Source: Acidobacteriota bacterium (GTDB taxonomy: Bacteria > Acidobacteriota > UBA6911 > RPQK01 > JAJDTT01). Taken from it: DNA of 64,000 nucleotides. Both the position numbers and the translations under genes were made by a program. The stretch's first letter is position 1. The number at the start of each line of letters is the position of its first letter. Below the pieces are notes generated by a model that saw only the letters and a list, made by a program, of their open reading frames with translations, was not told where the DNA came from and ran no database searches. This document shows positions 1 to 42,718 of this stretch, piece after piece. The stretch covers positions 2,976,001-3,040,000 of the forward strand of contig OZ242374.1 of the NCBI GenBank assembly GCA_965209055.1, in the 5' to 3' direction.

Positions 1-785
1 CACTGGGCGGCAAAAAGGGGGGGTCGCTCCCGTCCACCTCCATTTTCCCCGTGCGGCCACCCGGTGGCCGGAAATGGGGCCGCAACTGACTGAAAGGAAA
101 AAAGATCGGGGAGAGTGCATTTGTGAGTCACCGGGACCGCTTTTTGTGAATCCACCCCCTTTGTCCCATTCACATCCCGGAGCGGGCGCGAGACCCTCTT
201 GACGCACTGCCGAAACGAGCCTCCATTGGCCCTTGCGACTGCCAAGTGCGTTCACCGTCAATCACGACCTGGAAGGAGCGACTTTCCGCCGCTGGTTGCA
301 ACTCGACCGCCCGCTTCAGTGCGGCCGTCACCCTGCCTTAGGAGTTGAGGCGGCCCTGGTCGGTCGAGTGCCCCGGAATCGACACGGACGACGACGGTCC
401 GGTCGGCCTCGACGGCAATCGGCGGCTTGAGCGCGAAGTCGCATCGGGTCTTCCCCACCGTGCCGTAGTACAGTTGCCGGGGATGCCGATTCTTGGGAAT
501 GCCCCGCCGTTCGAAGCCGGACACCTTCGGCCTCAGGCAGAGTCCTCCGGTGGGGCCAAACGGTCGGCAAAGCCAATCGGATAAGGTCTTTGAGCCAGGC
601 AACGGAAGGGGAAAAAGGGCGCGTCGGCTTTCAGGAACCGATCCGGCTGCCTGTTTGTTGCCTGTTCAGTATGTCAAACATGGGGAGTCAATCACTTTTC
701 CGATTCGGCGAAGAACCCGGTAAATGATTGAAAACGTTAACGTTCGGTAGTCTTTGACTGTGGGACAGTTGGGACTAACAGTCCC
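1..785 (-). mobile_element. Left end (attL side) of a second copy of the 2.7-kb mini integrative element; truncated by window edge
   Basis: Reverse complement of 1-785 aligns along its whole length with 28455-29239, with scattered substitutions and small indels. Ends at the same core GGGACTGTTAGTCCC (771-785, minus strand). Confidence 0.9.
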
Positions 786-10279: not shown

Positions 10280-11824
10280 ATGGGGGCATCCTGGGTGGGG
10301 AGACAGTCTTGTCTCCGTCTTCAACACCTGATCATTCTCGTCGCCGCTATGGGAGCCTCCGCCCCGGGCGCTTCCGCGGAAACCGTCGACGTGGGCTCCC
10401 GTCTCGAGCTCATGGTGGATGAACATCTCATCGACCGCATGTCGGGAGGAGCCCGGTTGCAGGTCCACCGGCCGGTCCGGCGGAACGTGGCCCTGGAGAC
10501 CGGTGAGCCCTGGGAGGGAAACGCCTCCTTCTACCGGACGGTGTTCCAGGACGGAAGCGTCTACCGGATGTACTACGGCGCCTGGCACTACGAGACGACG
10601 GAGACGGGAATGACCTACCCCCACCGTCCGTACCTCTGCTATGCGGAGAGCAGCGACGGTATCCACTTCCGGAAGCCGAAGCTGGGGCTGGTGGAGTTCC
10701 GGGGCAGCACGGACAACAACATCGTCCTCTCCGAGACCACGCTCAACTCGGTCGAAGCCGACCCCGGCCACGCCGCCGTCTTCATTGACGACAATCCCGA
10801 CTGTCCCGAAGACGCCCGCTACAAGATGATCATCCGGTCCCGGGGCGAAAAGGGTCTCTTGGCGCTCAAGTCGCCGGACGGATTCCGCTTCACCCCCATG
10901 TCGGACCGCGTTGTGATTTCGGAAGGGGCCTTCGATTCCCAGAACCTGGCCTTCTGGGACCCCGTGCGGCGAGAGTACCGGGCCTATTTTCGAGGATTCC
11001 GGGAGGGGATCAGGGACATTCTGACCGCCACCTCGGCCGATCTCCTGAACTGGACGAAACCGGTCTGGTGCGAGTATCCGGGGGCTCCGTCGGAACATCT
11101 CTACACCAACCAATTGCGGCCCTACTACCGGGCGCCCCACATCCTGGTGGGCTTTCCCATGCGCTACAAGGACCGGGGACCCACCGAAGCGACTTGGCGG
11201 CTACCGGGGCGTGAAGCCCGGGAGCACAGATCCTCCGTCAACCAACGCTATGGAACAGCCGTGTCCGACGCCCTCCTGATGACGGGCCGGGACCGGCATG
11301 ACTTCAAGCGTTGGGGAGAGGCCTTCATTCGACCCGGGCCCGCCCGGACCGACAGTTGGGTCTATGGAGACAACATGATCGCCTGGGGAATCGTCCAGAC
11401 CCGATCGGATCGTGTCGGTTCTCCCGACGAACTCTCCATCTACGTGGTGGAAGGGTACTGGGTGGGGCGAGGCATCAACGTTCGGCGTTACTCCCTCCGG
11501 ATGGACGGATTCGTATCCGTGCGGGCGCCGTTGGCCGGTGGGGAGATCGTGACCCGTCCTCTCCGATTCGACGGCAATCGGCTACGCCTCAACTATTCCA
11601 CCTCCGGCAGCGGCGGAATCTGGGTCGAACTCCAGGACGCGGACGGCAGGCCCCTGGAGGGTTTCAGCCAGGCGGATGCGGATGAGGTCTTCGGAGACCA
11701 GATCGAAGGCGTCGTGACCTGGAAGGGGAACCGTGACGTCAGGTCGCTCGCCGGCCAACCGGTCCGGATCCGGTTCGTTCTCAAGGACGCCGACCTGTAC
11801 GCTTTTCACTTTGCCGCCGACTAG
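10280..11824 (+). CDS. Secreted beta-propeller glycoside-hydrolase-like protein (paralog 1)
   Basis: Signal peptide, YAESSDGIHF, FDSQN, C-terminal LRMDGF...PVRIRFVLKDADLYAF. Start position uncertain. Confidence 0.7.
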   Translation: MGASWVGRQSCLRLQHLIILVAAMGASAPGASAETVDVGSRLELMVDEHLIDRMSGGARLQVHRPVRRNVALETGEPWEGNASFYRTVFQDGSVYRMYYGAWHYETTETGMTYPHRPYLCYAESSDGIHFRKPKLGLVEFRGSTDNNIVLSETTLNSVEADPGHAAVFIDDNPDCPEDARYKMIIRSRGEKGLLALKSPDGFRFTPMSDRVVISEGAFDSQNLAFWDPVRREYRAYFRGFREGIRDILTATSADLLNWTKPVWCEYPGAPSEHLYTNQLRPYYRAPHILVGFPMRYKDRGPTEATWRLPGREAREHRSSVNQRYGTAVSDALLMTGRDRHDFKRWGEAFIRPGPARTDSWVYGDNMIAWGIVQTRSDRVGSPDELSIYVVEGYWVGRGINVRRYSLRMDGFVSVRAPLAGGEIVTRPLRFDGNRLRLNYSTSGSGGIWVELQDADGRPLEGFSQADADEVFGDQIEGVVTWKGNRDVRSLAGQPVRIRFVLKDADLYAFHFAAD

Positions 11825-11846
11825 GAGGGGCGACTTTCAGTCGCCC
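11824..11846 (+). repeat. REP-type palindrome
   Basis: GGAG-GGGCGAC-TTTCA-GTCGCCC overlapping the stop codon. Confidence 0.7.
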
Positions 11847-28379: not shown

Positions 28380-28573
28380 TCGTACGAAACACTCCCGTTG
28401 GAAAAGCCTTGCACGATTATATCCCGCCACCGCGACTTCCTTCCACCTGGGCCGGGGACTGTTAGTCCCAACTGTCCCACAGTCAAAGACTACCGAACGT
28501 TAACGTTTTCAATTATTTACCGGGTTCTTCGCCGAATCGGTAAAGTGGTTGACTCTCCATGTTTGACATGCTG

Positions 28574-28592
28574 AACAGGCAACAAACAGGCA
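28574..28592 (+). promoter_or_regulatory. Putative integrase arm-type binding repeats (left)
   Basis: AACAGGCAACAAACAGGCA; the same motif recurs at 31077-31098 and in copy 1 (about 648-666). Confidence 0.65.
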
Positions 28593-29205
28593 GCCGAATC
28601 GGTTCCTGAAAGCCGACGCGCCCCTTATCCCCCTTCCGTTGCCTGGCTCAGAGACCTTATCAGATAGGCTTTGCCGACCGTTTGGCTCCACCGGAGGACT
28701 CTGCCTGAGGCCGAAGATGTCCGGCTTCAAGCGGCAGGGCATTCCCAAGGATCAGCATCCCCAGCAAGTGTACTACGGCGCGGTGGGGAAGACCCGCCGC
28801 GACTTGGCGTTCAAACTGCCGATTGCCGTCAAGGCGGACCGGACCGTCTTCGTCCGTGTCGATCCGGAGCACTCGACCGACCAGGGCCGGCTCAACTCCT
28901 AAGGCAGGGTGACGGCCGCCCTGAAGCGGGCGGTCGAGTTGCAACCAGCGGCAGAAGTTCGCTCCTTCCAGGTCGGGATTGACGGTGAACGCACTTGGCC
29001 GTCGCAAGGGCCAATGGAGGCTCGTTTCGGCAGTGCGTCAAGAGGGTCTCGCGCCCGATCCGGGATGTGAATGGGACAAAGGGGGTGGATTCACAAAAAG
29101 AGGTCCCGGTGACTCACAAATGCACTCTCCCGGATCTTGTTTCCTTTCAGTCAGTTGCGGCCCTATTTCCGGCCACCGGGTGGCCGCACGGGGAAAGTGG
29201 AGGTG

Positions 29206-29302
29206 GACGGGAGCGACCCCCCCTTTTTGCCGCCCAGTGCGGGCGCGGGGGTGTTGCGCAATTCACATTTGCGCAGCACCCCCTGGGGGGGTCGCTCCCG
29301 TC
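29206..29302. repeat. Nested inverted repeats (large hairpin)
   Basis: Perfect 18-bp arms 29206-29223/29285-29302 enclose a 15-bp hairpin 29247-29261/29269-29283 with one G-T pair. Confidence 0.85.
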
Positions 29303-30030
29303 GAAATTATCCCTAGCGGGAAGGCAAGAGATGACACCCTGACGGGCAAGATGGGATGCAGGAGCATCCCTGATATCCACAACAATAAGGAACGGCTGGA
29401 GGCCCTCAGGAAGCAGGCGGTGGAGAAGCTCCGCGGCCGCCGCGCTTACCGCTGTCCGCGCTGTGGCTGTCAGAGCTACGAGAAAGATTTTGACCGGACA
29501 AGAAGAAGAGACACCTACCAACTGAAAAGCCCTTCCAGTGAGCGCCGAGGCCCTGTGTTCGAGCCTCCCCACCGTGTGGAAAATCAGAGATTTCCCACAG
29601 GGTGCGTCGTTTTGCTGACCCCACAATCAGCGCCGCCCACGAAAGAAAGCCGGCTCCCGGCTGGAAGCCGTCCGAGACCGCGCGAGGGACCCGTTCTTAT
29701 GGGACGCGACAAACAGGAGCGCGTGAAAAAGAGTCCGGCATGGTGAGCCTGACTCTTTGAGGGCGCAACTGGGGGGTCTGGGGGGATAGTTCCCCCCGGT
29801 CCGTCATCCGTTCCGGCTTGCCGGCCTCGCGGACCAGGACGAAATCGGCCCGCCGTTGGAGGACCTCGACCACGGTCGCGGTCCAGGCCTCTCCGGCCCG
29901 CGTTGTGATCTGGATGGAGCCGCCGCCGCGTCCTCGCTCTGAAGGACCTGAACGCCGACGTCGATTCTCTGGCGCCGTGGTAGGATTCGCCCCATGGCGA
30001 AGAACCCGGATCCGGAAAGGAGGAGATGCT

Positions 30031-31119
30031 ATGGGCATCTACAAGGTGAAGGATCGCCGGGGGAGAAGACGCTATGTCGTCAGCAAGTACTGGCCGCACG
30101 GATCCGGTCGGCTTCGAATGTACGCCCCCAACTACCGGAGCGCACAGGCGCTTCAAACACGAATCGAGTCCAGCATCCTGGACGGCACATGGAAGCAGCT
30201 CAAGGAGGAACTCGCCGGCGGGAACCGCACCGTCTGGACGGTCCGGAGCTTCTACGAGCGTTTCTTCGAGGAGTACTGCAAACCTCGCATGCGCTCCCGG
30301 CGTCGCTATGCGCTCTCGTTCAAGAGCCTCAACGCCATGCTGGGAAACATTCCCCTGAAGGAGTTCCGACGCAAGGACCTGTACCGCTATGTCGCCAAAA
30401 GGAAGAAGCAAGTGCAGCCGGCCACGGTGAACCGGGACATTGCCGCCATCAGCAAGCTGTTTTCCTACGCGCTTGAGTGCGGAGAAGTGGACACGCACCC
30501 GCTGGTGAGATTCCCCAAACTCAAAGAACCCAAGAAGGTCTTCCGGCCCTTGACGGTTCAACAGTTCCGCGACCTGGTCGAGGCGATGGACAACCCCTGC
30601 CTGCAAGCCATGGTTGCGGTGATCGGCGAGACGGGGATACGGAAAGGCGAAGCGTTGTCGCTCACCTGGAAACGGGTGGACCTATCCCGGAGTCTGCTAT
30701 GGGTGGAGTTCACCAAGAACGACGAGCCGAGGGAGATTCCGCTCTCGAAGTATGCTGCTGGATACCTGACCGGGCTGGTTCGCTACCTGAACACGCCATA
30801 CGTTTTCGTCAACAGCCGGACTGGCACGAGATGGGTGAATCCGGACAAGCCGTTGCGCCGGGCCGCCGAGCGGGTGGGGTTGAAGGTCGGATTTCACGAC
30901 CTGAGACGATTCCGGTGCAGCCATTGGCTGATGCAGGGGGTGGACGTGAGAACGGTGCAGAAGCTGATGGGTCACTCGGCGATCAGCACGACCATGCGCT
31001 ACGCCGGGTACGTCAGTTCCCATGCGCTTGCCAGCATACGGGAGGCACAGGCTACCGAAGACTCACAAATGCGCCCGGCAACAAACAGGCAACAGGCAGG
31101 AAATAGGGGGAATGACTAG
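30031..31119 (+). CDS. Phage-type tyrosine integrase
   Basis: AGGAGG RBS; PATVNRD, TGIRKGE (R), TKND (K), HDLRR, LMGHS, MRY catalytic set intact. Confidence 0.95.
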   Translation: MGIYKVKDRRGRRRYVVSKYWPHGSGRLRMYAPNYRSAQALQTRIESSILDGTWKQLKEELAGGNRTVWTVRSFYERFFEEYCKPRMRSRRRYALSFKSLNAMLGNIPLKEFRRKDLYRYVAKRKKQVQPATVNRDIAAISKLFSYALECGEVDTHPLVRFPKLKEPKKVFRPLTVQQFRDLVEAMDNPCLQAMVAVIGETGIRKGEALSLTWKRVDLSRSLLWVEFTKNDEPREIPLSKYAAGYLTGLVRYLNTPYVFVNSRTGTRWVNPDKPLRRAAERVGLKVGFHDLRRFRCSHWLMQGVDVRTVQKLMGHSAISTTMRYAGYVSSHALASIREAQATEDSQMRPATNRQQAGNRGND

Positions 31120-31157
31120 AGGAGAGCAGTGGCGTAACCCCTTGAAAATAAAAGCAA

Positions 31158-31201
31158 GCGCCCCAAGCTCAGCAGGACAGAGCGCGGGACTGTTAGTCCC
31201 C
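31158..31201 (+). other. tRNA-like 5' half (acceptor strand, D arm, anticodon arm) overlapping attR
   Basis: GCGCCCC-AA-GCTC-AGCAGGACA-GAGC-G-CGGGA-CTGTTAG-TCCC; no T arm or 3' acceptor strand follows. Confidence 0.7.
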
Positions 31202-31720
31202 CCGTCCCCTTTGCGCCAATCCTCCAATTGAAGTTCGGCGGTTGAAAACCCCCGTTCCTTCTCCACGGTCCCACTCCCGGGCCATTTGCTTCAAATCCGC
31301 CACAATACTGCTGTAGGCGGGGTCGCCGTACAGGTTGCGCTGCTCCCAGGGGTCGTTCAGGAGATGGTAGAGGGACCCGTCCTCGTCGGGTACCCGCTCG
31401 TCCATGAAGAAGACCAGCTTCCATTCCCGGGTCCGGACCATGACCCGCCGTCCCCCGCTGCGGCGAAGTTCCTCGTAGGCATCTTCGCTGTGATCGTGCT
31501 CCGAGAAACAGGCCCGGCGCCACTCCCGGACCTCGCCCCGGATCAAGGGCAGCAGGCTCCGGCCCCGAATCCCGGAGGGCGGGTCGAAACCGGACAGCTC
31601 CAGCAGCGTCGGCAGGAAGTCCACCATCTCCACCGGCTCCGTCACCACCTTGCCCTGAGGCAGCAGCCCTGGAGCCCGAAGGATGAACGGGACCTTGACG
31701 TTGGTGTCGTAGAAATCCCG
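31193..31720 (-). pseudogene. 3' part of a split sulfatase
   Basis: DFYDTNVKVPFILRAPG...VDFLPTLLEL...GRSL...MVRTREWKL...LYHLLNDPWEQRNL is a sulfatase C-terminus; joins in frame to 43366-44366. Confidence 0.9.
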
Positions 31721-31780
31721 ATTGTCGGGTGTCCTGGTCTGGAAACCAACGGCCGAACGTATAATAAACCGGAGGTTGTA

Positions 31781-32767
31781 ATGGGAAAAGTCATCAACTT
31801 CAGACCGAGACGAGCCTGTCTGTTCAATGTGGAGACCATGGCCCGGATCAACACCAAAACCGAGTCGCCACGACTCACCCGAGCCCTGGAGAGCAAATCG
31901 GAGACCACGGCCAGAACCTACAGGAACGCCATAAACGGATTTGACCGGTGGGCCAACGGCCGCCCCGTCTCGGATGAGACTTTGGCCGAATATGTCACTC
32001 ACCTCCATGAGACCGGGAAGTCTCCTGCATATGTTCGAGTCTGCATTTCCGGTCTCCGGTTTCGGGAAAAGGCACTGGGAAGACGAGACCCTAAAGGCAT
32101 GGAGACCGGTATGGCCCTGGATATCTCCCGCAGGAAGGGCAGAGGCAGAGGGAAGGGACAGGCACCCCACCTCACTAAAGACCAGATTCAGAAAATTGGC
32201 GAGGTAGCGGTGTTGTCCGGGAGTCTCTGGGGCCTGAGAGACCGGGCCGTCATCTCCACCATGTTCGCGGCCGGTCTGAGAGTCTCTGAGGCTTGCGAGT
32301 TGGAGGTGAGAGACCTGGAATGCCTCGAAGACGGGAGCGGCCTGCTCACAGTTCGATTCTCGAAGACGGATTCAGAGGGTAAGGGATTCACCATGGGTCT
32401 GTCTCCCGGACCGGTCCGGCATCTTTGCGAATGGATAGAACGAGCTAGTCTCAGGGACCGGGATCCCCTATTCCCGGCGATTCATTCCAAGGGTGTGGAC
32501 AATTTCCAAACCCGGATTGTCAGATACAAGGCATCAACCAAGACCATGGCCCGGATCGTCTCAACTCGTGCTGAGGCTGCCGGGTTTCCCGGTGTGACAA
32601 GTCATTCCATGCGGCGGTCGTTTGCCGCTCATTTGAGTTTACAGGGTCTCCGAACTCATCAAATCCAAGAGGCGGGTAGGTGGACTTCACCTAATATGGT
32701 GCTCCAGTACACACAAGGGGCCCGGGCCACTCGGTCCAAAGTCGTGGCGGCCATGGCATGGGAGTAG
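31781..32767 (+). CDS. Cre-like tyrosine recombinase
   Basis: GGAGG RBS with TATAAT upstream; LRDRA, AGLRVSE, FSKTD, SHSMRR, GRW (Cre-type Trp), MVLQY. Confidence 0.92.
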   Translation: MGKVINFRPRRACLFNVETMARINTKTESPRLTRALESKSETTARTYRNAINGFDRWANGRPVSDETLAEYVTHLHETGKSPAYVRVCISGLRFREKALGRRDPKGMETGMALDISRRKGRGRGKGQAPHLTKDQIQKIGEVAVLSGSLWGLRDRAVISTMFAAGLRVSEACELEVRDLECLEDGSGLLTVRFSKTDSEGKGFTMGLSPGPVRHLCEWIERASLRDRDPLFPAIHSKGVDNFQTRIVRYKASTKTMARIVSTRAEAAGFPGVTSHSMRRSFAAHLSLQGLRTHQIQEAGRWTSPNMVLQYTQGARATRSKVVAAMAWE

Positions 32768-32878
32768 GCGGCCCCACCTTCGCGGTTCACTGAGAGTGAT
32801 GAGCTGTCCCGGCCTGCTTTGAAGCGGTGAGACGGACGTACAATAAAGGTGCCACTTTAATCACGAAGGGAGGAGACA

Positions 32879-33130
32879 ATGGAACTGATACCGCAGGAAT
32901 CAACGCGTGAGGATGTGCAGGATGCCTACAAAAGAGGTTTCCGGTCCGGTAACGAGTTAGGTCACCGAAAAGGGAAAACAGAAGGCTATCAGAGGGGCTT
33001 GAAGACAAAGGAACTACGGGAAGCCTTTGATAAGGGCCATGAGCTCGGAGAGGCGGAAGGCCACGCCATGGGTTTTACCAAGGGCTGGAACGCAAGAGGG
33101 AGAGAAAGAAATGAAGTTGATGCCGAATGA
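32879..33130 (+). CDS. Small hypothetical protein with GxxxG repeats
   Basis: GGAGGAG RBS; YKRGFRSG, YQRG, FDKGHELGEAEGHAMGFTKGW periodicity. Confidence 0.7.
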   Translation: MELIPQESTREDVQDAYKRGFRSGNELGHRKGKTEGYQRGLKTKELREAFDKGHELGEAEGHAMGFTKGWNARGRERNEVDAE

Positions 33131-33434
33131 CACGGAGCCGAAAATTCTTTTCTTTTATCTGAGCCTTGCCGCGAATGTGGAGCGTGCGGAGAAGAATCCC
33201 GGTATGCTCCCGGAAGTCAGTGAGCAGTGGAGAAGGGGAGTGGACGCTCTGCCACGGATGCACGAAGACGCCCCCGATTTGTGGCGATTACTCCAACAGG
33301 GTAAGGATACTCCCGAAGTTCGGGAGAGAATGAGGGCTGTTAGTCGGCGCCAACCGTCCGAACGGACAGATGCGGAGCAGGCATTTTTCCTATGGGTGAC
33401 AATCGCCCTTATGGTGCCTGTCACGGTCCATTAG
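33111..33434 (+). CDS. Hypothetical protein
   Basis: Overlaps the preceding ORF and converges on the portal stop. Confidence 0.55.
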   Translation: MKLMPNDTEPKILFFYLSLAANVERAEKNPGMLPEVSEQWRRGVDALPRMHEDAPDLWRLLQQGKDTPEVRERMRAVSRRQPSERTDAEQAFFLWVTIALMVPVTVH

Positions 33435-33438
33435 TGGC

Positions 33439-33594
33439 CTACACCCCGGCCAGACGTTCTGCATCCGCCGCAGACCATCCCTTGTCCCGCAAACGGGCGG
33501 CCATGGCCAGCCGTTGATTGAGCGGGACCAACCTTGCCAACACTGGCGAGGTGTCCAACATCACCGGACGTTCCAGCACCCTAGCGGTCTCGTC
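33439..33594 (-). pseudogene. Portal gene 3' end separated by the IS
   Basis: DETARVLERPVMLD...AERLAGV* continues the 35628-36500 frame once the IS and one repeat are removed (342 aa). Confidence 0.75.
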
Positions 33595-33722
33595 TTGGAG
33601 GGTGCGGACCCAACCGCCGCATGTCGTCGCTACCCAACTCCGCAAGGCGTCCGGCCTTGTCGTCGTGGAGTTTGGACCAAGACCCACTAAGGCACGGGGA
33701 ATCCCTAGAGACTCGCTCAGGT
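33595..33722. repeat. 128-bp direct repeat (target duplication), left copy
   Basis: Identical to 35628-35755. Confidence 0.92.
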
Positions 33723-35627
33723 CCTGACTTCGACGGTTTTGAACCGTAAGTTATTGATTTAATTATGCAAGTGTTCTCAGAGTACACTACAGAGCTAGGA
33801 AATGGAGAGCGGGGCGGGGTTCAACTCTGGGGACGATTTGGCGACAACAGCAGGGTCGTGGTCCGGCGGAGGGTGAGGCCGACCGTCTTGTAGAGCAAGC
33901 GCTGCTCCCGGGTGGAGCCGAAGGGGACCAGGTAGCGGTTGCCGTTGCCCTGATCGCGGATCAGCGAGACGGTCACGTTGCCGAGTTCCGCCAGGATTCG
34001 GTCCTCGCTCAGCGACGGCTGGCCGGCATGCTGCCGGGCGTACTTCCAGCGCAGGATGCGCAACAGCGCGAAAGCGACGTAACAGAGGGCGACGTGGGCG
34101 CGAACCCGGCGCTCAGTCCAGTGAAAGACCGGGCGTACCCGGAGCGTGTGTTTGAGCACCCGGAAGCCCTGCTCGATCCTCCACAACTCGGCATAATGCG
34201 CCCGGATCTGTGAGGCGGGGGGTTCGCCCAGGCTGGTCCAGACCCCGTGCAGTCCATCAAAGAGAGCATCGCGTTCGATCGCCTGGCGGTTGAGCGTGAC
34301 CGCATGGCGTTTCAGCTTCAGGAACCGTCCCGGGCGCCGCCCGAGCGGTTCTCCCTTCGCGATCTTCTCTTCGGCCTTCTTCACCGCCTGCTCTCGGGCT
34401 CGGGCGTCCCGGCGCGCCTTGCTCGGACAGTACCGCACCACCAGCCGGCGACCGTTGACTTGCCGTTCGGTCAGACGCCTCAGACGTCCCTTCCGGTCCA
34501 GCGGCTGTGGAGTCCACTCCTGCGGAGAGCCCAGGGCAGCGAAGTCGGCCCGCTTGAGCTGCCGGAGCCGTGCCGCGACCACCCAGTCCAACCCCGCCTT
34601 TGTCAGCGCCCGCAGGTTCTTGTCGCTCAGCAACCCGGCGTCGGCCACCACCACCGCCCGTCCAACTTCGAACTGCTCTCGCAACTCCTGAAGCATCGGC
34701 AACAGCGTCTTGACCTCCGTCGTGTTCCCCGGGAACAAGCGATACCCGACCGGCAACCCTTCCGTCGTCTGCATCAACGCCAGCACCACTTGCGAGCGAT
34801 ACGGTTTCCCGTCCTTGCTGTATCCCTTGCGTCGCAAATCGTCTTCCACTTCGGTCGCGAAGGAGAGCGTCGTCGTGTCCAGGAACACGACTTGCACCGG
34901 CCCTCCCAACAAGCCCCGGACGGTTCCGTCCAAATGCTTCAGCAATCGGCTCTGCCGCTGACGATTCAGGCGATCCATCATCCGGTAGACCCGCTCCAGG
35001 GGGAGGTTCACCCCCTGCTCGGACAACTCCGCCGCCAGGTGGCGCTTGCTTTTGCCGGGCGCAGCCAGGCGCGCCAGCATCAACTGCCGGAACACCCGCT
35101 CGGACCCCCGTTGATTCCGGGGCCAGAGGCGAGCCAGACCGAGATCGTCGTAGAGTTGGCCGAAGACCTCGTGAAAGCCCAGCTTCAGATCCTTTTCTCC
35201 CTGGAGCTTCCGGGCGTCGGCAATCGGGATCGGCCCCAAAGCCTTCCGCTCCCGCCGCGCGGCCACCGCCTGCTCGGCCAGATACGCCGGCGGGAACAGC
35301 GCGGGCTGCCGTTGCTCCAGCAGGCGCACCTTCTCGTACTCGGCGACCCGGAGGAGTTCCTCAAGTGCGGGCCCCTCGGGAGCGGAACCCATGGAGCGGA
35401 TCAGGCGCTGGCGGGGTTGACGGTGTTCGTTGCGGTAAGACTCGACAATTTGGACGACGACATTGGGCGTGTGTCGGCGGCGAATCTGTCGCACAAACAT
35501 GGGGAAAGTCTAACAGAACAATAAGATAATATCAATATTCCAGGTACACTACAGACGGGCCCAAAACTCAACCTCAATGGGCTCAAACGTTTCCGAGCCT
35601 CAGCGCCGATAATTTGTCGAAGTCAGG
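33723..35627 (-). mobile_element. IS1634-family insertion sequence (1905 bp)
   Basis: 12-bp terminal inverted repeats CCTGACTTCGAC / GTCGAAGTCAGG; single DDE transposase. Confidence 0.92.
33821..35500 (-). CDS. IS1634-family DDE transposase
   Basis: MFVR...QIVESYR, FLDTTT, GYSKD, VVADAG, LWRIEQGFRVLK, RPVFHW. Confidence 0.93.
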   Translation of the reverse strand: MFVRQIRRRHTPNVVVQIVESYRNEHRQPRQRLIRSMGSAPEGPALEELLRVAEYEKVRLLEQRQPALFPPAYLAEQAVAARRERKALGPIPIADARKLQGEKDLKLGFHEVFGQLYDDLGLARLWPRNQRGSERVFRQLMLARLAAPGKSKRHLAAELSEQGVNLPLERVYRMMDRLNRQRQSRLLKHLDGTVRGLLGGPVQVVFLDTTTLSFATEVEDDLRRKGYSKDGKPYRSQVVLALMQTTEGLPVGYRLFPGNTTEVKTLLPMLQELREQFEVGRAVVVADAGLLSDKNLRALTKAGLDWVVAARLRQLKRADFAALGSPQEWTPQPLDRKGRLRRLTERQVNGRRLVVRYCPSKARRDARAREQAVKKAEEKIAKGEPLGRRPGRFLKLKRHAVTLNRQAIERDALFDGLHGVWTSLGEPPASQIRAHYAELWRIEQGFRVLKHTLRVRPVFHWTERRVRAHVALCYVAFALLRILRWKYARQHAGQPSLSEDRILAELGNVTVSLIRDQGNGNRYLVPFGSTREQRLLYKTVGLTLRRTTTLLLSPNRPQS

Positions 35628-36500
35628 TTGGAGGGTGCGGACCCAACCGCCGCATGTCGTCGCTACCCAACTCCGCAAGGCGTCCGGCCTTGTCGTCGTG
35701 GAGTTTGGACCAAGACCCACTAAGGCACGGGGAATCCCTAGAGACTCGCTCAGGTCTCCCGACAGGGCCGCGTGAGACTTCATGAGTTGGTCCAGGTCAT
35801 TGGGTGCGAGTCTCACGGGCAGAGGGTAAGGCCCTGAACCGTCCATTGCCGAACGTCCGGCCAGAGGGAGGAATGAGATACCTCCGGCCAGTTCCCGGAG
35901 TTTCTGAGCCTTTTCTCTCAGGCCCTCTGGATTGTCATTCCAGGTTGCATGAATCGCAGTTCCACGGGGGGAGCCCGCGTCTAGTTCAATGGCCAAATCG
36001 ACCACGGCCAGTTGACGGGAGGCAATGCCGCAGTCTCTCCAATTCTCCCCCCGCCACGGTAGGGTCCGGGAGGGACGAATCACGGCATGGACGACTTGCT
36101 CAGGCCGGACGTTACGGTGAACCTCCGAGCGGTCAGGCCCTTCCACCGTGAGGGTCTTGTAGCGGAGCATTGAGGCGGTCCCGGTCAGTTCGTAGTCCAC
36201 CACGGGCCGCAGGGTCAGGCTATCGTCCAGGAATAGGACGGCCTCCCCTTCCTCAATGATGCAATTCGCTATCCAGGGCCAGAGCCCGGAAAAGACGGGG
36301 TCATAGTCAGAGGCCGCTAGAACGCCCTCCAAGCGTCTGGCACAAGCCATAAGGACGGCGGGCCTATACCCCCATGAAAAGACCGCGGAATGGACGGGGA
36401 GACCTGCCAGGGCCGCTATGAGAGGGTCTCCATAACCTGCCAGGCTGCGGTGTTCCTCTGCCCGTGGAGGCGGTTCCAGGTTCAGACTGATTAGAGCCAC
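35628..36500 (-). pseudogene. HK97-like portal protein, 5' part (IS-truncated)
   Basis: Lies after capsid and protease; GEAVLF, EQVVH and LGIPRALVG resemble portal motifs; divergent. Confidence 0.65.
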
Positions 36501-36991
36501 GAGGGAACCTCCCGGACTCTCTCAGTCGGTCTATGCCGTTTCGCAACCTGGACCGAGGAATCCGAATAGGCCGGACGGTCCACAATGCCGAGACCGGAGA
36601 GTCTCGCCCGTTGGATGGTCCGCAGAGTGCCGGACCACGTTTCCCGCGTAGCCTGGAACTCAAGCGAGAGACCCCGCAAGACGCCGGACTCTACAAGGGC
36701 CAGCGTATCGTCTGCGTCCCTTGTCTGCGGGAGTTCGGCGCGAATCTCCAACTGAGTGGCACTGTCCCTCAGTTCGAGGCCGCCCCCGCCGGATCTGGCG
36801 AGAGGCCGGGACCGTTGGTGCTGGACGTTCAGGATAACGTCCAGGGAGGAAACATCACCAAACGCCCCAGGCTGGAACCGCTCCCGGAAGTCAGGGAAGA
36901 TTCGGGCCTCCGAACCGTAGACAATGGCGACGCCGGAAAGGGTCCGCCCTTCCCGGCGCAGCTCCACAAATCGCCGTTCCAGGGTCTTCAC
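36491..36991 (-). CDS. HK97-family prohead protease
   Basis: RTLSGVAIVYG, FRERFQPGAF, LNVQH, GLSLEF, GIVDRPAY. Confidence 0.93.
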   Translation of the reverse strand: MKTLERRFVELRREGRTLSGVAIVYGSEARIFPDFRERFQPGAFGDVSSLDVILNVQHQRSRPLARSGGGGLELRDSATQLEIRAELPQTRDADDTLALVESGVLRGLSLEFQATRETWSGTLRTIQRARLSGLGIVDRPAYSDSSVQVAKRHRPTERVREVPSWL

Positions 36992-37000
36992 GGTGGACCC

Positions 37001-38206
37001 TTAGCTGGCCAGCTTGAACCGGAGGCGGCCAAATCCGTCGGCCCGTAGAACCTTGAGGTTCCAAAGGGCGACGGCGGTCAGCACGACTTGGCCGGTCTTG
37101 GCCTTTGTGATGCGGTCTGGAATGAGGGTGACTCCCCGCCATACCGGAAAGACCGCGTGAGTGGCATTGATCCGACGGGCCGCTACTGCGCCCTGGATAT
37201 GGGCCGCCGTCTTCTCCGGGACGTGAGAAGACACCCTCACGCCTCCACTCTTGCGGGTGAGGGTCTCATAGGCACTTTCGTTTGTGCCTCCGGCGGATTC
37301 CGTGGTCCGGTACACGGACTCAGTGTGAGAGTAGGTCTGACTTCCGAGCACCATCCGGACCTGATCGGTCATGGAGGCAAAGTGGCCGTCCACTTGATCG
37401 GTCAGGGACTTCTTATAGGCCGTCCAGTCCGCTACGGCGGTGGGAGCGGTGGGAGCGGTCAGACCTCCCCCTAGCAGACCCTCTGCGGTGTCGGTCAATA
37501 GCAGTTCATCAAACTTGCTACTGAGGGCCATTCTGAGGTTATCCCTCAATGCGTTTTCCAGTCCGGCAAGGCCATACTCGTCTTCCAGGTTCCAGTAGAA
37601 AGACGCTTGCGCCCGTTTCCGGTCCAACACACTGGCCGTAAATGCGCCCGTGGTCTCCGTGGCCGCCGCACCCTTGGCCGGAGTTCGAACCGTGGCACCG
37701 GTGGTCAGGACCGTATAGGTCTGGTCTCCCACTCCCACCGTCGGCATGGAGACTCCCAAAAAGTCTATGAGGCCGTCGGGGAAGATTTGCGGAATAATCG
37801 GGTGCTGCATCTGACCGACGTCGGAAGGTGCGGGAGTCACTGCCCGTTCCTCACCTCTCAACTGCTCAATGGCGATTTGATTTGAGGCGAGACCGAAATG
37901 GGTCTGCAACTCGGCCTCCGCTCCCTCCGTCGCCCGTTGATTGAGGGCCGCCCCTAGCACGTTACCCACAGAGGCGCGACTGACAAGGCGGTCTAGCTCC
38001 CTCTGCTCGGCATCAATCACGGTGACTTGAGGTGCTGGATTCTCTCGAACCGCGTCCCGGTATTCGGTCTCAATCTGAGGCAGTCTTTCCCGGAGTTCGG
38101 TGAGTTCGGTATTCTCGGCCTCCGTCCGGTCTCCCTTGCGTTCCAACTCGTTCATACGAGTACGCTTTTCAGAGAGTCTCACTTGCAGACGTTGAAGTTT
38201 AGTCAC
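37001..38206 (-). CDS. HK97-fold major capsid protein with N-terminal coiled-coil scaffold
   Basis: GTG start after RBS; E/R-rich coiled coil of about 80 aa; about 400 aa; C-terminal AKTGQVVLTA...VLRADGF; adjacent to the protease. Confidence 0.8.
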   Translation of the reverse strand: MTKLQRLQVRLSEKRTRMNELERKGDRTEAENTELTELRERLPQIETEYRDAVRENPAPQVTVIDAEQRELDRLVSRASVGNVLGAALNQRATEGAEAELQTHFGLASNQIAIEQLRGEERAVTPAPSDVGQMQHPIIPQIFPDGLIDFLGVSMPTVGVGDQTYTVLTTGATVRTPAKGAAATETTGAFTASVLDRKRAQASFYWNLEDEYGLAGLENALRDNLRMALSSKFDELLLTDTAEGLLGGGLTAPTAPTAVADWTAYKKSLTDQVDGHFASMTDQVRMVLGSQTYSHTESVYRTTESAGGTNESAYETLTRKSGGVRVSSHVPEKTAAHIQGAVAARRINATHAVFPVWRGVTLIPDRITKAKTGQVVLTAVALWNLKVLRADGFGRLRFKLAS

Positions 38207-38207
38207 T

Positions 38208-38528
38208 TTAGTTTCCCCCTGTATACAGGTTTTCAAGATATGCGGCCCACTGCCGCCGAACCGGCGGGACTTTATTCATGCGTTCCCGCCGGTGGACTTC
38301 CAAATGACAATCGACACAGAGCAAAAGCACGTTATCCAGGCTATGCCGTCCACCCTCACTCAACGGCCTTACATGGTGGAGTTCACAACGGCGGGAACCT
38401 AGACGTGAGGTGCGGCCGGCGGTGATTCTGTGGCCGCACTTCTCGCACTTGAACCGTGCGCGATTGACCAAGACCCACCGGCGCAAGCGGTGCTGATCTG
38501 GCCCTACTTGTCTGTGCCATTCGCTCAT
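38208..38528 (-). CDS. HNH endonuclease (packaging-associated type)
   Basis: CEKCG, ELHHVRPLSEGG, DNVLLLCVDCH. Confidence 0.9.
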   Translation of the reverse strand: MSEWHRQVGPDQHRLRRWVLVNRARFKCEKCGHRITAGRTSRLGSRRCELHHVRPLSEGGRHSLDNVLLLCVDCHLEVHRRERMNKVPPVRRQWAAYLENLYTGGN

Positions 38529-38582
38529 TCTGAGTCCATAATATTGGATAAGGTGTTGCAATTGCAACAATCACAACCGAAA

Positions 38583-38924
38583 ATGTTGGATATGCAGCAG
38601 TCGATAGGCCATCAAGTCCATTACGACGCGCCCGTAATGAGGCGCGCCAGTTCCTCCCAATGCTCATACCGAACGCTATGGCGCAAGGTGCTATGGTCCG
38701 CAGTCAGGGACTATCACGGGCTGGAAATGACTAGCCTTGTCAAAAACCTCCACGCCTCCCCGGTCCAGATCCAGGCAGACGCTAGGGCATGGGTCCACTC
38801 TGAGGAGACCGGACCCGCCACGTTCGAATGGGTAGCGGAGTTGCTCGGATTCTCCCCGGACGCTCTGCGCCAAGCTATTGACCGAATGGATAAAAGATCC
38901 ATAAACAGAAGGTTTAGGCCGTGA
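38583..38924 (+). CDS. Phage-type hypothetical protein
   Basis: LWRKVLWSAVRD...DARAWVHS...TFEWVAELLG; directly upstream of terL. Confidence 0.6.
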   Translation: MLDMQQSIGHQVHYDAPVMRRASSSQCSYRTLWRKVLWSAVRDYHGLEMTSLVKNLHASPVQIQADARAWVHSEETGPATFEWVAELLGFSPDALRQAIDRMDKRSINRRFRP

Positions 38925-39053
38925 ACAGGTCACTAAGTATGCACCTATCAGGGATTAACCATGCATTAGTGGGCTGCCCGAGGCCCCTATATGCAAGTTT
39001 CCAAACCGGCTTGCTCCCCAAGTCTTAGTTATAGCAACGTAAACGGCTGATTT

Positions 39054-40544
39054 ATGAACTGGAAGTACGAAACATTAATAACTCTGAGGCCGTTCCAACA
39101 TGAGTTCATAAAATATGCACTTATGCCGGGAATCCATACGGCGGCCTTGTCACTGCCGAAAGGGAACGGCAAGAGCACTCTGGCCGCGTTTCTGGCCTTG
39201 CAGACCCTTCTCCCGGAGTCTCCGCTATTCGTCCGGGGAGCGGAAAATCATATCGTGAGTAGTTCGGTGGGCCAGTCCCGCCGTAGCACGTTCGGAATAC
39301 TCCGGCGGATGTTGGCGCAGGTTCCGAACTGGGGAAGGGACTACCGGGTGACGGATAACGCAACCTCCGCAAGAATCGTCCACCCTCAGAGTCTCACTGA
39401 GGTCTCGGTACTCCCGGCCAACTCAAAAGCGGCGCAGGGCATCGTCCATGCGCGTCTGGTCATTGCAGACGAGCCCGGAGCCTGGAAGGTGGGCGACGGG
39501 GAAGAGATGCACGACACCCTACAGGCCACGGTAGGGAAACCGGGAGTGAACCTCCGTTTGCTCTACATTGGCACCCTTGCTCCGGCGGGCCGGGGTCATT
39601 GGTGGCCGGAGTTGATAGAGGATGGAGGCGACGGCCTCACCCACGTCACCTTTTACGGGGGAACGCCGGAGGAAGTAGCGGAGCGGTGGGATACGTGGCC
39701 TTTGATCCGCCGGAGCAATCCGTTGATGAGTCACTTCCCGGAGTCCCGGCGGGTGCTACTCGCAGAGCGGGACAAGGCCCGGAGGGATTCGAGGTTGCAG
39801 GCCCGATTTTGCAGCTATCGCTTGAACTGCCCTTCTCGGGACCGCTCGGAGATGGTGTTGACCGTGGCGGACTTCGAGAGGGCCTCAAATCGCACTCTGC
39901 CAGTCCGGGACGGTGCTCCCGTCGTCGGTCTCGATTTGGGCCAGGGGAGGGCCTGGTCTTCTGCCGTCGCCCTCTGGCCCTCTGGCCGTTGTGAGGCCGT
40001 GGCCGTCGCTCCCGGCCTCCCGTCAATCGAGGCGCAAGAGCGGAGGGACCGCGTACCGAAAGGCACCTACCGGAGACTGATAGAGGTGGGGTCTCTGACC
40101 GTCGCAGAGGGCCTGAGAGTGCCTCCCGTGGCCTCCATCATGCGGCAGATCCGGGAATGGCAGCCACGGGTGATCCTCTGCGACAGGTTCCGGTATGGGG
40201 AGGTTTTGGACTCAAACCCGCCCTGTCTGGTAGTTCCACGGGTGTCCCGGTGGTCTTCCAGCACGGAAGACATTACCCACCTCCGCAGAATGGCCGCAGA
40301 CGGGCCCTTGTCGATAGCGGTGGGGAGCCGTCACCTACTGGCCGCCTCTCTGAGTGCGGCCAAAGTCATCACCGACGACGCCGGGAACGTGAGACTGAGC
40401 AAGTCAAAGGAAAACACGGCAAGGGACGACGTGGCGGCAAGCCTGATTCTATCGGCGGGGGAATGGGGGAGGCGGTATGCAGGCGAGACTCAAGAACCGG
40501 TTTTTGTATTCGCCCCTTCTAACGGTCCCGTCGCGGTGATGTAA
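39054..40544 (+). CDS. Terminase large subunit
   Basis: LRPFQ adenine motif, PKGNGKST Walker A, LVIADE Walker B, SNP, VVGLDLG nuclease, RDDVAAS. Confidence 0.9.
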   Translation: MNWKYETLITLRPFQHEFIKYALMPGIHTAALSLPKGNGKSTLAAFLALQTLLPESPLFVRGAENHIVSSSVGQSRRSTFGILRRMLAQVPNWGRDYRVTDNATSARIVHPQSLTEVSVLPANSKAAQGIVHARLVIADEPGAWKVGDGEEMHDTLQATVGKPGVNLRLLYIGTLAPAGRGHWWPELIEDGGDGLTHVTFYGGTPEEVAERWDTWPLIRRSNPLMSHFPESRRVLLAERDKARRDSRLQARFCSYRLNCPSRDRSEMVLTVADFERASNRTLPVRDGAPVVGLDLGQGRAWSSAVALWPSGRCEAVAVAPGLPSIEAQERRDRVPKGTYRRLIEVGSLTVAEGLRVPPVASIMRQIREWQPRVILCDRFRYGEVLDSNPPCLVVPRVSRWSSSTEDITHLRRMAADGPLSIAVGSRHLLAASLSAAKVITDDAGNVRLSKSKENTARDDVAASLILSAGEWGRRYAGETQEPVFVFAPSNGPVAVM

Positions 40545-40824
40545 AACCTACCTCCCGGCGGGTCTTTTCGTTTCGCTTGGCCTGTAAAATGGCATGACCC
40601 AAAACGCAGGTTACAGCGAACACTCCGAGGCGGTACAAAAAGTAAGTCAGACCTACCAACGCGGCCAACAAAATCAGTAATTCCACCTCACGGCCTTCCT
40701 TTTGAAGTGAGCGGGAAAATCCACTTTCTCTCAGGTCTCAAAACTCCCCCTCTCAGACTCTCCCATTTTCTACCAAGACGGCCAGAATAGGGTGACTATC
40801 TGTGTTGGCTCAGGTAACACCAAA

Positions 40825-41847
40825 TCACGCGTACTGATTCAGGCGTGATTTGTAGTGCCACGGGAAAGGCCCCGGACGGTGAAAGATACGGTGAACCGCA
40901 CGGCCAGACAGGCCCCAACCATTCGCCACTTCCCGCATTGAAAAACCTAACGCCACTGCTACAGAAATTGCGTGGTCCCTGTCTTCGGTTCGCTGCCTCC
41001 GCTTGTCCGCTCCGATTCTCGCCCTTGTCCGTTGCCGCCGAATCCAGGCCGGGCAATGCCAGTTTCTGGCCGCCCACGCTTGGCGGTATTCCGTCACTTT
41101 TTTCACCGTGGCCCGGACTTCACTTGCAGGGAGTCTCCCCCGGCCCTCTTTCTCGAAGACTTGATTGCGAGTCTCTGCGGCCACGGCCACGTCGATACCC
41201 CGGTTTTCCTTACGTCCGGCCCAACGCATCAACTCTTGGAACATATCCACGTTCCGGCCAATTCCGGTTCGGACTTTGCACGGCATCTTCCAGCCAAAGG
41301 GAATCACCTCTGCGAGCTCCTCCAGGGAGTAACCGCCCTTGTGTTTCCAATGGGTAACGGTGGACCTATCGGCCCAATGCATAGGGTTTCGGGTGAGGAA
41401 TCCGCTGTATCCAGGGTCCGCCGAGGTCTGGCCGTGGTAGTACGAATCGACCCGTTTCAAGAGTTGTAGCGGTTTCGGTCTGGCCTCCGGGTAACGGTGG
41501 ACTGGTTTTCTCAGGGTCCATACGGCATGACAGTGGCCGTTGGCCTTGTTTTGGACAATCCAGGACGGTTCCCGGACTCTCGGCCAGACGATGGCCTCCC
41601 ACATGGCTTGTTCGTCGTCGCAGTCGAGAATCAGGCCGACGTAGGTATTAGCGGCATGGAGTTGTAGAAACGGGTGCCTCCATGCATTGGCCGGGGGGAC
41701 GTGGATCCGAGATTTGAAGTCTCTGCGCCGGGATGCGCCGCGCCCGACGTATCCGCAAACCTTGGGGCGGATATGAGCATCACTCAGGCCGTGGAGCCTC
41801 ACCTTCGGCGGGGCGTCTTCAATGGGGAGTCTTGCCGGTACAGGCAT
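40825..41847 (-). CDS. ColE2-type replication initiator (Replicase + PriCT + HTH)
   Basis: LILDCD, NGHCHAVWTL, DPGYSGFLTRNP, GIGRNVDMF, LPASEVRATVK, C-terminal HTH. Confidence 0.88.
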   Translation of the reverse strand: MPVPARLPIEDAPPKVRLHGLSDAHIRPKVCGYVGRGASRRRDFKSRIHVPPANAWRHPFLQLHAANTYVGLILDCDDEQAMWEAIVWPRVREPSWIVQNKANGHCHAVWTLRKPVHRYPEARPKPLQLLKRVDSYYHGQTSADPGYSGFLTRNPMHWADRSTVTHWKHKGGYSLEELAEVIPFGWKMPCKVRTGIGRNVDMFQELMRWAGRKENRGIDVAVAAETRNQVFEKEGRGRLPASEVRATVKKVTEYRQAWAARNWHCPAWIRRQRTRARIGADKRRQRTEDRDHAISVAVALGFSMREVANGWGLSGRAVHRIFHRPGPFPWHYKSRLNQYA

Positions 41848-42715: not shown

Positions 42716-42718
42716 GGG

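Follow-up and report, generated by a model that had tools for sequence, protein, structure and literature searches.

What mobilizes a 2.7-kb unit that codes for a single protein, ends in short palindromic direct repeats and sits in a host repeat instead of a tRNA gene? The unit occupies positions 28455-31200 of a 64,000-nt stretch (the window) of a 6.08-Mb acidobacterial genome (G000, the host genome). An earlier note on this DNA had proposed that a tRNA-targeting integrase was redirected to the repetitive extragenic palindromes (REPs) of its host. Our findings support a model in which the unit is, very probably, a minimal member of a site-specific integrative family retargeted from tRNA-Arg(TCT) to REP hairpins. 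It spans 2,746 bp when both cores are counted and has a period of 2,731 bp, and the 15-bp direct repeats read by the earlier note are exact. The repeated word, GGGACTGTTAGTCCC, matches the window three times (twice on the forward strand and, at 771-785, once on the reverse strand) against 0.11 expected, with at least three matches in 0 of 100 shuffles. At the left end (attL), the left half of the core belongs to the host, with ...CTGGGCCG as flank, and the right half to the element, whose left end begins AACTGTCCCACAGTC...; at the right end (attR), the loop of the core holds the TAA stop of a flanking sulfatase ORF (31193..32170, reverse strand). The third match bounds a second copy, likewise anticipated, which lies in reverse orientation, runs past the window start and shows 94.6% identity across 2,747 aligned bases; its host flank passes from a TAG stop codon through GAGG to the core. 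Classical insertion sequence (IS) features are absent: the single conserved gene is a tyrosine integrase, the two ends are unlike each other, and the direct repeat derives from a site that existed before insertion, of which the empty allele has one copy.

The integrase ORF matches the Pfam Phage_integrase profile with an E-value of 6.6e-26 (91.6 bits, cut-off 27.1, profile positions 3-166 of 172), and GGAGGAG stands 7 nt upstream of it. The motifs ...ETGIRKGE..., ...HDLRRF... and ...GHSAISTTMRYAGY..., picked out by eye and not by alignment to a solved structure, are candidates for the catalytic Arg, His-x-x-Arg, His/Trp and Tyr. Substitutions between copies are strongly biased toward third codon positions in the integrase (max-phase fraction 0.55-0.86); no such bias is found in the 1.5 kb to its left (0.35-0.59). 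Three small ORFs there (87 aa, forward; 115 aa, reverse; 255 aa, forward) were rejected, having neither a Pfam match nor third-position bias. Comparing stop-to-stop frames across copies gave no information, since the DNA is so conserved that every frame looks the same. By the comparison of substitution patterns across elements, the mini element contains neither an excisionase nor any further conserved protein gene, and the description of an integrase-only unit thus stands as far as proteins are concerned (table 1).

Table 1. Features of the unit and of related sites, in window coordinates
Feature	Position	Strand	Remark
Second A-type mini element, left 785 bp	1..785	-	attL core 771-785; genome 2974087-2976785
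Unoccupied REP of the same superfamily	11824..11846	+	CTA-GGAG-G-GGCGAC-TTTCA-GTCGCC-C
attL core, REP hairpin GGGAC-TGTTA-GTCCC	28455..28469	+	exact 15-mer
Conserved left arm with two ACAGGCA heptamers (28575-28581, 28586-28592)	28470..28605	+	aligned in about 24/24 other elements
Conserved non-coding module	28965..29330	+	present in 25/25 elements
Variable spacer, where the mini element has its cargo slot (empty)	29331..29950	.	aligned in just 3-8 other elements
Tyrosine integrase, 362 aa	30031..31119	+	PF00589, Int_N and SAM-like N-terminal domains
Two right-arm ACAGGCA heptamers, within the 3' end of the integrase gene	31085..31098	+	a heptamer at a fixed position in 25/25 elements
Relic tRNA-Arg 5' half (acceptor strand and D arm), GCGCCCCAAGCTCAGCAGGACAGAGCGC	31158..31185	+	BLAST to the real tRNA-Arg(TCT) gene of the host genome
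attR core, left half element, right half host	31186..31200	+	exact 15-mer

The host genome holds 25 complete elements of 2.7-25 kb, in four subfamilies (A, eight, plus one cut by a contig end; A', seven; B, five; C, five), each bounded by the core of its own subfamily and sitting in a REP hairpin whose loop matches that core. The integrase occurs in 26 full-length copies at 88-100% identity. The larger elements insert extra DNA, up to about 22 kb each, between the non-coding module and the region upstream of the integrase. Among the cargo ORFs scanned (124 of 228), Pfam matches are mostly to restriction-modification (types I, III, ISP, MmeI-like), GmrSD, AbiTii/Abi_alpha, Mrr-like and NucS-like proteins, the remainder being IS transposases and a small number of unrelated proteins (LRR, fibronectin-type, ion channel, trypsin, thioredoxin-like). 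The idea of a multi-copy, IS-like mini element survives as to copy number; as to size it does not, since 18 of the 25 complete elements exceed 4.2 kb and the family is mostly cargo-bearing.

Nor is the mini element wholly bare, as had been supposed: it retains a structured non-coding module. In this module, the stretch 29010-29280 evolves slowly (substitution rates 0.058-0.09, with 0.13-0.16 in two windows), and its core, about 29205-29303, forms a three-way-junction hairpin structure. BLAST finds 66 copies in the host genome, 33 of them outside these integrase elements. Over 39 distinct copies, 97.9% of pairs in the fold are canonical, G-U cells outnumber A-C cells (87 vs 12), and 8 of 41 pairs carry compensatory changes as opposed to at most one in shifted controls. 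The core is thus probably an RNA read in the sense of the integrase, to judge from this covariation. Rfam, even in a relaxed scan, returned no family at threshold for the module and only implausible matches below it. ARAGORN calls of tRNA-Val on two copies were taken as false because the remaining copies are uncalled. A role as guide RNA was dropped, the variable part being independent of core type: A-type copies differ among themselves, and one equals a B-type copy. There is a small chance that this RNA-like module, retained in all copies, has a role in control or targeting.

The tRNA ancestry of the family is written at the right end of its members. The last 27 nt have a tRNA-Arg 5' end as their best match among the 68 tRNAs of the host genome, in 25 of 25 elements; this relic half is diverged and not functional. 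ARAGORN called no tRNA at the left or the right junction of the unit, and an Rfam scan of 31080-31300 at E<=10 gave sub-threshold, implausible matches; Rfam misses the relic because a half-tRNA is too short to score. Over the entire window, tRNA-Leu alone reached the Rfam gathering score. In the closest relatives, by contrast with REP-targeting members, the tRNA gene itself is used: integrases at 83%, 73% and 72% identity have a complete tRNA-Arg gene after them on the same strand, and the relatives L005, L007 and L008 have their att site in a tRNA gene with an intact tRNA at one junction. For instance, in a congener (G003), the 83%-identical integrase bounds an island of ~47 kb in a genuine tRNA-Arg(TCT) gene; its attL combines a tRNA 5' half with GGACTTCTAATCC and with a left end homologous to that of the window element (81% identical over 140 nt). 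For the two tRNA-Arg integrases co-directional with their tRNA gene in G010 and G035, a search of 8-9 kb yielded neither a second 13-bp core nor a recognisable left end. A tree of 58 integrases, from a quick search with SH-aLRT support only and with a single long-branched outgroup as root, unites the 34 REP-targeters in one clade (94) nested among tRNA-targeters; its sister is the G003 integrase (98), followed by two other tRNA-Arg integrases (99) and then by convergent tRNA-targeters. Relic, congeneric island and nested clade together bear out the proposed retargeting, and support tRNA-Arg(TCT) as the ancestral target, though the A-type loop now resembles an Asn anticodon.

We therefore favor, on the strength of comparative sequence data, the following scheme. 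A lambda-type, probably heterobivalent, tyrosine integrase would drive the element. The anticodon loop of tRNA-Arg(TCT) would have been the integration site of the family's ancestor, which contributed the 5' half of the gene, and the attachment site would have switched to host REP hairpins within this acidobacterial genus, the REP stem replacing the anticodon stem as core-binding sites and the REP loop replacing the 7-nt anticodon loop as the overlap for strand exchange. Identity of overlap between element and REP would select the REP subfamily used, and the asymmetric central triplet of the overlap would fix orientation. The element would be multi-copy because matching REPs lie at many intergenic sites, and would serve as a carrier of defence genes, the 2.7-kb copies being those with an empty slot. 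Several features agree with this scheme. ACAGGCA heptamers recur at fixed places in both arms: on the left, 24 of 25 elements have one at +106 and all 25 have one at +117; on the right, every one of the 25 has a forward heptamer some 100 nt (99-102) before its end. They are candidate arm-type integrase sites. In four of the five C-type elements, the only sequence common to attL and attR is TTTCCTA or TTTCCAA, at the position of the anticodon loop; judging from these junctions, strand exchange is confined there to 7 bp matching that loop. A and A' cores differ solely in a triplet, GTT or AAC, and their integrases are interleaved on the tree. A GGAG head precedes 7 of the 8 other A-type left junctions (counting the copy cut by a contig end), or 8 of 8 with the GGGAG variant at 4664884; of the 9 A-type elements, 8 thus have it at attL, the headless ninth being the window copy. 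All 7 A' elements have its complement, CCTCC, at attR instead (CTCC at 2106491). The central triplet sets the orientation of insertion in 16 of 16 elements.

How the target is read admits more than one answer. In the B and C types the element and its REP have unlike stems, and core-site recognition thus looks looser than in textbook integrases. There is a small chance that the integrase reads mainly shape, a G+C-rich, anticodon-arm-like hairpin, together with the 7-nt loop; if so, a few point changes in the loop could re-aim the element at any REP subfamily in either orientation, making this a naturally re-programmable tyrosine integrase. Alternatively, the REP may be recognised as a folded hairpin (single-stranded or cruciform), as in integron attC, and not as duplex core sites; specificity would then come from structure together with loop sequence. 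Between attP and attB the loop is shared and the stem is not (in C-type, CGGA/TCCC on the element side vs GGGGGT/CCCCC on the host side, and similarly in B-type), near-identical integrases use REPs of differing stem as well as one REP in both orientations, and every target is a perfect hairpin. Nevertheless, we give folded recognition rather little credence: the closest relatives use their tRNA gene in the ordinary way, with a duplicated segment of 42 bp, and arm-type motifs in both arms suggest a lambda-like intasome on duplex DNA.

Variants of the host REP hairpin occur in 14-81 copies apiece, and their flanks share the consensus GGAG(G/C); described REP superfamilies are reportedly headed GTAG or CGTC, and the head here is GGAG. 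A RAYT-like gene lies next to such REPs, a 307-aa open frame with a match to PF01797 (30.8 bits, cut-off 23) and ...NHVHVL...; at its 5' end are three perfect-stem hairpins (two GGGCGATTAGGAAATCGCCC, one CGGCGGTTTCCCAACCGCCG) overlapping the stop-to-stop frame, and on the opposite side no hairpin was seen within 1.3 kb. The empty REP that the earlier note had pointed to at 11824 is present. Of the 37 exact cores in the host genome, 12 are unoccupied, and 11 of these 12 are GGAG-headed. The proposed GGAG-headed host REP holds for the sites as a superfamily and fails for the left flank of the window copy itself. With 16 complete A/A' insertions vs about 12 empty A-type sites, the A-type variant is rare, and "abundant repeat" better suits the B-type target, GGCGATTTCCAATCGCC, of which 79 copies are unoccupied. 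That over half of the A-type sites are occupied would also be expected if these sites were footprints of elements, produced by loop conversion at integration or excision, instead of pre-existing host repeats; the loop TGTTA is moreover unlike the TTCC-type loops of abundant REPs. This origin is very improbable, given that a second genome (G001) without an intact family integrase holds 18 exact cores, and that 14 of 14 sites examined there are unoccupied in REP-type flanks (GGAG head at 9 of 14). A 21-residue integrase remnant (L050), possibly from G001, makes past presence of an element there possible; conservative recombination between identical overlaps, on the other hand, leaves no footprint.

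The elements also show signs of recent movement. The window locus lacks the element in five of five congeners, and in another metagenome (run X6) a single 205-nt contig at depth 4.2 joins 28450 to 31182, skipping 2,731 bp. Two copies at different loci match at 100% over 2,752 bp, and 1 mismatch in 2,703 separates the window copy from one at another locus. None of the 37 exact cores in the assembled host genome forms a circle junction (right end-core-left end), and none appeared among the joints of four public runs kept as contigs, a form that does not reveal rare excision products. Excision as a circle, the exact cleavage positions, the arm-site role of the heptamers and the manner in which copy number rises are parts of the scheme that we infer. 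Spread by the RAYT (an HUH transposase) acting on flanking REPs, or by homologous recombination or segmental duplication, with the integrase a passenger, is scarcely credible: a RAYT-like gene and a REP-like hairpin at each element end are indeed present, but the integrase is in 25 of 25 complete elements, boundaries fall inside the hairpin loop with exactly 7 bp shared in four elements, the flanking hairpins are direct where those of REPINs are inverted, the tRNA-Arg island of G003, a case that involves no REP, has the same left end and integrase at its boundaries, and the flanks of separate copies are unrelated.

How does retargeting to REPs compare with known systems? Literature searches returned no description of a tyrosine integrase retargeted from tRNA to REPs; the earlier note, too, had known of none. 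Such a history turns a single-site tRNA integrase into a multi-site one by replacing its attB with a host repeat that has the same geometry, with intermediates persisting in sister species, and provides a natural experiment on integrase specificity and direction through a 7-bp overlap and its central triplet. With the tRNA islands of Islander class A the family shares the enzyme class, the 7-bp anticodon-loop overlap and the stem as inverted core sites; as in islands displacing the 5' part of the tRNA gene, the integrase gene adjoins attP and the element carries a tRNA 5' half. In the relevant part of the Islander paper, 2,083 islands have anticodon-centred sites and a 5' fragment is found in 159 of 3,919 (PMC4383910). 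The present family departs from those islands in recombining with a REP hairpin on the host side and not with a tRNA gene, in carrying its tRNA piece as a non-functional relic, and in having target sites and copies by the tens in a genome where an island has one. Tyrosine integrases would thereby join the enzymes using REPs as safe landing sites. Known REP-targeting ISs comprise IS1397/ISKpn1 (IS3), IS621, ISPpu9/10 and ISPa11 (IS110), and also members of IS4, IS5 and IS256. These likewise target REP palindromes in multiple copies, inserting between genes and therefore with low harm, but they use DDE/DEDD transposases (with a bridge RNA in IS110), whereas the present elements combine a tyrosine integrase with att-site logic and carry up to about 22 kb of cargo. 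REP targeting is attributed to five IS families in the relevant part of Tobes and Pareja 2006 (PMC1525189). Integron IntI/attC, IMEX and dif modules with XerC/D resemble our family as tyrosine recombinases acting on short, imperfect, multi-copy palindromes; integron cassettes and dif modules, however, lack a recombinase of their own, and the integrase here groups with tRNA-type integrases on the tree. The enzyme/overlap pairs could supply genome engineering with a set of related integrases that differ in their short targets. Finally, the mostly restriction-modification and abortive-infection cargo, in the part scanned, recalls the defence islands of integrase-bearing satellites and genomic islands; there, the hotspots are a few conserved genes, whereas here they are chromosome-wide REPs, offering a route for spreading defence genes over many intergenic sites within one genome.

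The genome of this Acidobacteriota bacterium, a single contig of 6.08 Mb (62.8% G+C) in which the window spans 2976001-3040000, houses a true tyrosine-integrase island family. Within the window, the 15-mer GGGACTGTTAGTCCC occurs three times (~0.11 expected; three in 0/100 shuffles), and between its two direct copies lies a single long ORF, whose 362-aa product matches Pfam Phage_integrase (E 6.6e-26) and N-terminal SAM-like domains; this is the repeat-bounded unit with one integrase, and the core again elsewhere, that the earlier note had described. At the third copy, the TAG stop of the neighbouring gene immediately precedes the GGAG head. The TAA stop of a minus-strand sulfatase ORF falls in the loop of the core at the right junction (attR), so that the C-terminus of this ORF is unaltered by the insertion. 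Genome-wide, the search for occupied and empty sites suggested in the earlier note gave 37 exact GGGACTGTTAGTCCC cores, 12 of them unoccupied; by BLAST, the left end of the element has 30 matches and the right end 29, the latter including one real tRNA-Arg gene and one fragment short of the end. Once left and right ends are paired, 25 complete elements emerge (2,669 to 25,051 bp, seven of them ≤4.2 kb), and a further one is truncated where the contig ends; four left ends without a partner and a small number of decayed right ends are left over. Four subfamilies are defined by their core (see table). Among the 25 copies, substitutions in the integrase are strongly third-position biased (max-phase fraction 0.55-0.86); the 1.5 kb left of it lacks this bias (0.35-0.59) and has no Pfam match. 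The extra DNA of the larger elements sits between the conserved non-coding module and the integrase: a Pfam scan of 124 of 228 ORFs ≥90 aa (integrase ORFs excluded), taking in 12 of the 16 larger elements fetched and half of another, returned restriction-modification types I, III, ISP and MmeI-like, GmrSD, Mrr-like and NucS-like nucleases, AbiTii and Abi_alpha, and IS transposases.

Features, cores and repeats of the element family and its surroundings (window positions unless a genome is named; G000 is the present genome)
Feature	Position	Strand	Detail
GGGACTGTTAGTCCC, left core	28455-28469	+	
GGGACTGTTAGTCCC, right core	31186-31200	+	
GGGACTGTTAGTCCC, third copy	771-785	-	
Integrase ORF	ATG 30031		
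Left arm	28470-28605		kept in all copies
Module	28965-29330		kept in all copies
Integrase upstream region			kept in all copies
Module copy	29186-29330		
Empty REP	11824		CTA-GGAG-G-GGCGAC-TTTCA-GTCGCC-C
Second island	31724-43365		11.6 kb
Xer-like integrase	~31844-32767		PF00589 1.2e-18
tRNA-Leu(TAA)	42716-42803		carried by second island
tRNA-Leu(TAA), six, ARAGORN	G000: 477237, 1381642, 1991443, 2104898, 2524782, 3018716		at least one (2104898) within an A' element; one in the second island
RAYT-like frame	G000:C1:1142808-1143728	-	PF01797 30.8 bits
B-type element, right end	G000: 1143786		
tRNA-Arg between two integrases	G010:C21:320527-322467		
tRNA-Arg between two integrases	G035:C1:5131139-5133451		
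Subfamily A			core GGGACTGTTAGTCCC; 8 elements + contig-end-cut copy
Subfamily A'			core CGGACTAACAGTCC; 7 elements
Subfamily B			core CGGATTTCCAATC; 5 elements
Subfamily C			core GGATTTCCTAC or TTTTCCAA; 5 elements
REP variant GGCGGTTTCCTAACCGCC			81 copies
REP variant GGCGATTTCCAATCGCC			79 copies
REP variant GGCGACTTTCCTGTCGCC			43 copies
GGGGAC-stem REP variants			15-18 copies

Directly left of the right-hand core, every element carries sequence readable as a tRNA acceptor strand and D arm. By BLAST this end matches the genome's real tRNA-Arg(TCT) gene, and tRNA-Arg is best in 25/25 elements when the last 27 nt are compared with the 5' ends of 68 tRNAs (TCT 20, TCG 4, CCG 1). Three homologues of the integrase have a complete tRNA-Arg ~40 bp downstream on the same strand (83% identity in the congener G003, 73% and 72% in the relatives G010 and G035). 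The 52%-identical integrases L011 and L012 have the usual arrangement, tail-to-tail with a tRNA-Arg(TCT); so have those of 32-43%, which face tRNA-Leu, Arg, Asp or Cys, the exception being L061 (35%), co-directional with tRNA-Arg(CCG). A 28%-identical outgroup integrase is without a tRNA. The genome G016 contributes to a single 41/41 tally and to none of the claims made here. In G003 a second GGACTTCTAATCC copy is found 47 kb upstream, with the 5' half of the tRNA before it and, after it, a left end that matches that of the window element at 81% identity over 140 nt; thus, the same element type delimits a ~47-kb island that sits in a real tRNA gene. In a phylogeny of 58 integrases (quick search with IQ-TREE, supports from SH-aLRT only; four rows with internal stops excluded), a comparison with homologues and their attachment sites that the earlier note had also proposed, one clade holds all 34 REP-targeters (support 94), its sisters being, in order, the G003 integrase (98), the G010 and G035 pair (99), the convergent tRNA-Arg integrases and the rest. 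The direction of change can be read from the relic half-tRNA without recourse to the tree root. The idea that a tRNA-targeting integrase was retargeted to a REP is supported by the relic, the G003 tRNA island and the sister order. In G010 and G035, one tRNA-Arg gene has integrases on both sides, a co-directional 72-73% relative upstream and a convergent 49-55% relative downstream; it looks as if a single anticodon-loop site served two distinct islands, one on either side.

A perfect-hairpin scan of the genome recovers a large repeat superfamily whose members combine a GGAG(G/C) head with a G+C-rich stem and a loop of the TTCC type, and the empty REP at 11824 reads as previously quoted. B-type insertions occupy the 79-copy variant, and A and A' insertions GGGGAC-TGTTA-GTCCCC. 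The earlier description of an abundant GGAG-headed REP target holds for its identity, the head being present on 11/12 unoccupied A-type cores, and, as to abundance, suits the B-type target better than the A-type REP, which is not abundant. In the congener G001 no intact family integrase was found (best match E 9e-15); it has 18 exact A-type cores, and the 14 fetched are all unoccupied (GGAG head on 9/14), so the hairpin is a host repeat rather than element-borne. Exact cores number one in G003 and none in G002, G004 and G005; the G004 elements have other REPs as cores. Three hairpins, two of GGGCGATTAGGAAATCGCCC and one of CGGCGGTTTCCCAACCGCCG, stand at the 5' end of a Y1-transposase frame resembling REP-associated transposases (RAYT-like), and the REP adjoining this frame holds a B-type integrase element.

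The segment common to element and host, taken from the comparison of attL (the left junction) with attR, is 15 bp in A-type, 14 bp in A' and 11 bp in B elements; 4/5 C-type elements have just TTTCCTA or TTTCCAA in common with the host. Numbered on the relic tRNA, this 7-bp stretch corresponds to positions 32-38, which make up the anticodon loop. Core stems differ across the family. What separates A from A' cores is solely the triplet at the centre of the loop CT-NNN-AG: GTT in the former and AAC in the latter, each the reverse complement of the other. The GGAG head (one GGGAG) is on the attL side in 8/9 A-type elements, the window copy being the ninth, without head, and its complement (one CTCC) is on the attR side in 7/7 A' elements. 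The integrases of both are 94-98% identical to that of the window and intermixed on the tree (e.g. A-type at 4661822, sister to A' at 2828147); orientation thus goes with the overlap and not with the protein. The heptamer ACAGGCA is found at +106 (24/25) and +117 (25/25) from the left end and, always forward, 99-102 nt before the right end in all 25, with 8 more forward occurrences in all interiors combined; these heptamers are putative arm-type sites of a lambda-like integrase.

The module has a predicted three-way junction fold and no Rfam family. Across 39 distinct copies, canonical pairs make up 97.9% of cells and 8/41 pairs show compensatory double changes (≤1 when partners are slid by 1-2 columns); the excess of G-U over A-C cells (87 vs 12) favours a transcript with the same polarity as the integrase gene. 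With related copies, and a structure taken from that very alignment, these figures are no more than suggestive. The genome has 66 copies, the one at 29186-29330 and 65 elsewhere, 33 lying outside the REP elements. Just upstream of the latter a second, P4-like integrase of 411 aa recurs (a cluster of 23 ORF rows), and many are nested 3' fragments with one common end, as if the module itself were an attachment target.

At the locus, the flanking genes are adjacent, tens to ~300 bp apart and without the element, in 5/5 congeners examined (G001, G003, G004, G005, G007). In X6, a public metagenome run of a different study, a single contig (205 nt, depth 4.2) passes from 28450 straight to 31182, skipping 2,731 bp with 18 letters that fit either side; it shows a precise empty site that has a single core, for which excision and a never-inserted state are indistinguishable. 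No circle junction was found among the 37 exact genome cores or the metagenome-run contig joints. Some copies are recent: those in the window and at the contig end differ by 1 base in 2,703, two A-type copies are 100% identical over 2,752 bp, and two C-type copies are 100% identical save one 1.9-kb insert. The elements are presumably active. Beside the window element, the sulfatase gene is split by a second island: homology to the G005 ortholog breaks off at 31723 and is picked up again at 43366, an 8-bp repeat, AAATCCCG, flanks the insertion, and the island has its own Xer-like integrase, single-copy in the genome. In other genomes, tRNA-Leu(TAA) adjoins distant homologues of the family integrase.

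A tyrosine integrase with a REP as attB was not found in the full-text literature searched, which does not extend to subscription journals, nor is one described in the accessible parts of PMC3390384 and PMC12884075. According to the accessible text of PMC1525189, REPs are targets for five IS families, every enzyme being DDE or DEDD, whereas the present family uses a tyrosine integrase. Neither ARAGORN nor Rfam found a tRNA at the junctions of the window element and, because of this, the family falls outside tDNA islands as these are defined; yet it works like them. As far as the accessible text of PMC4383910 goes, a displaced 5' fragment is known from a minority of tRNA islands (159/3,919), Islander counts 2,083 islands with anticodon-centred sites, and a 7-bp exchange at the anticodon-loop position follows the known logic of anticodon-loop integrases.
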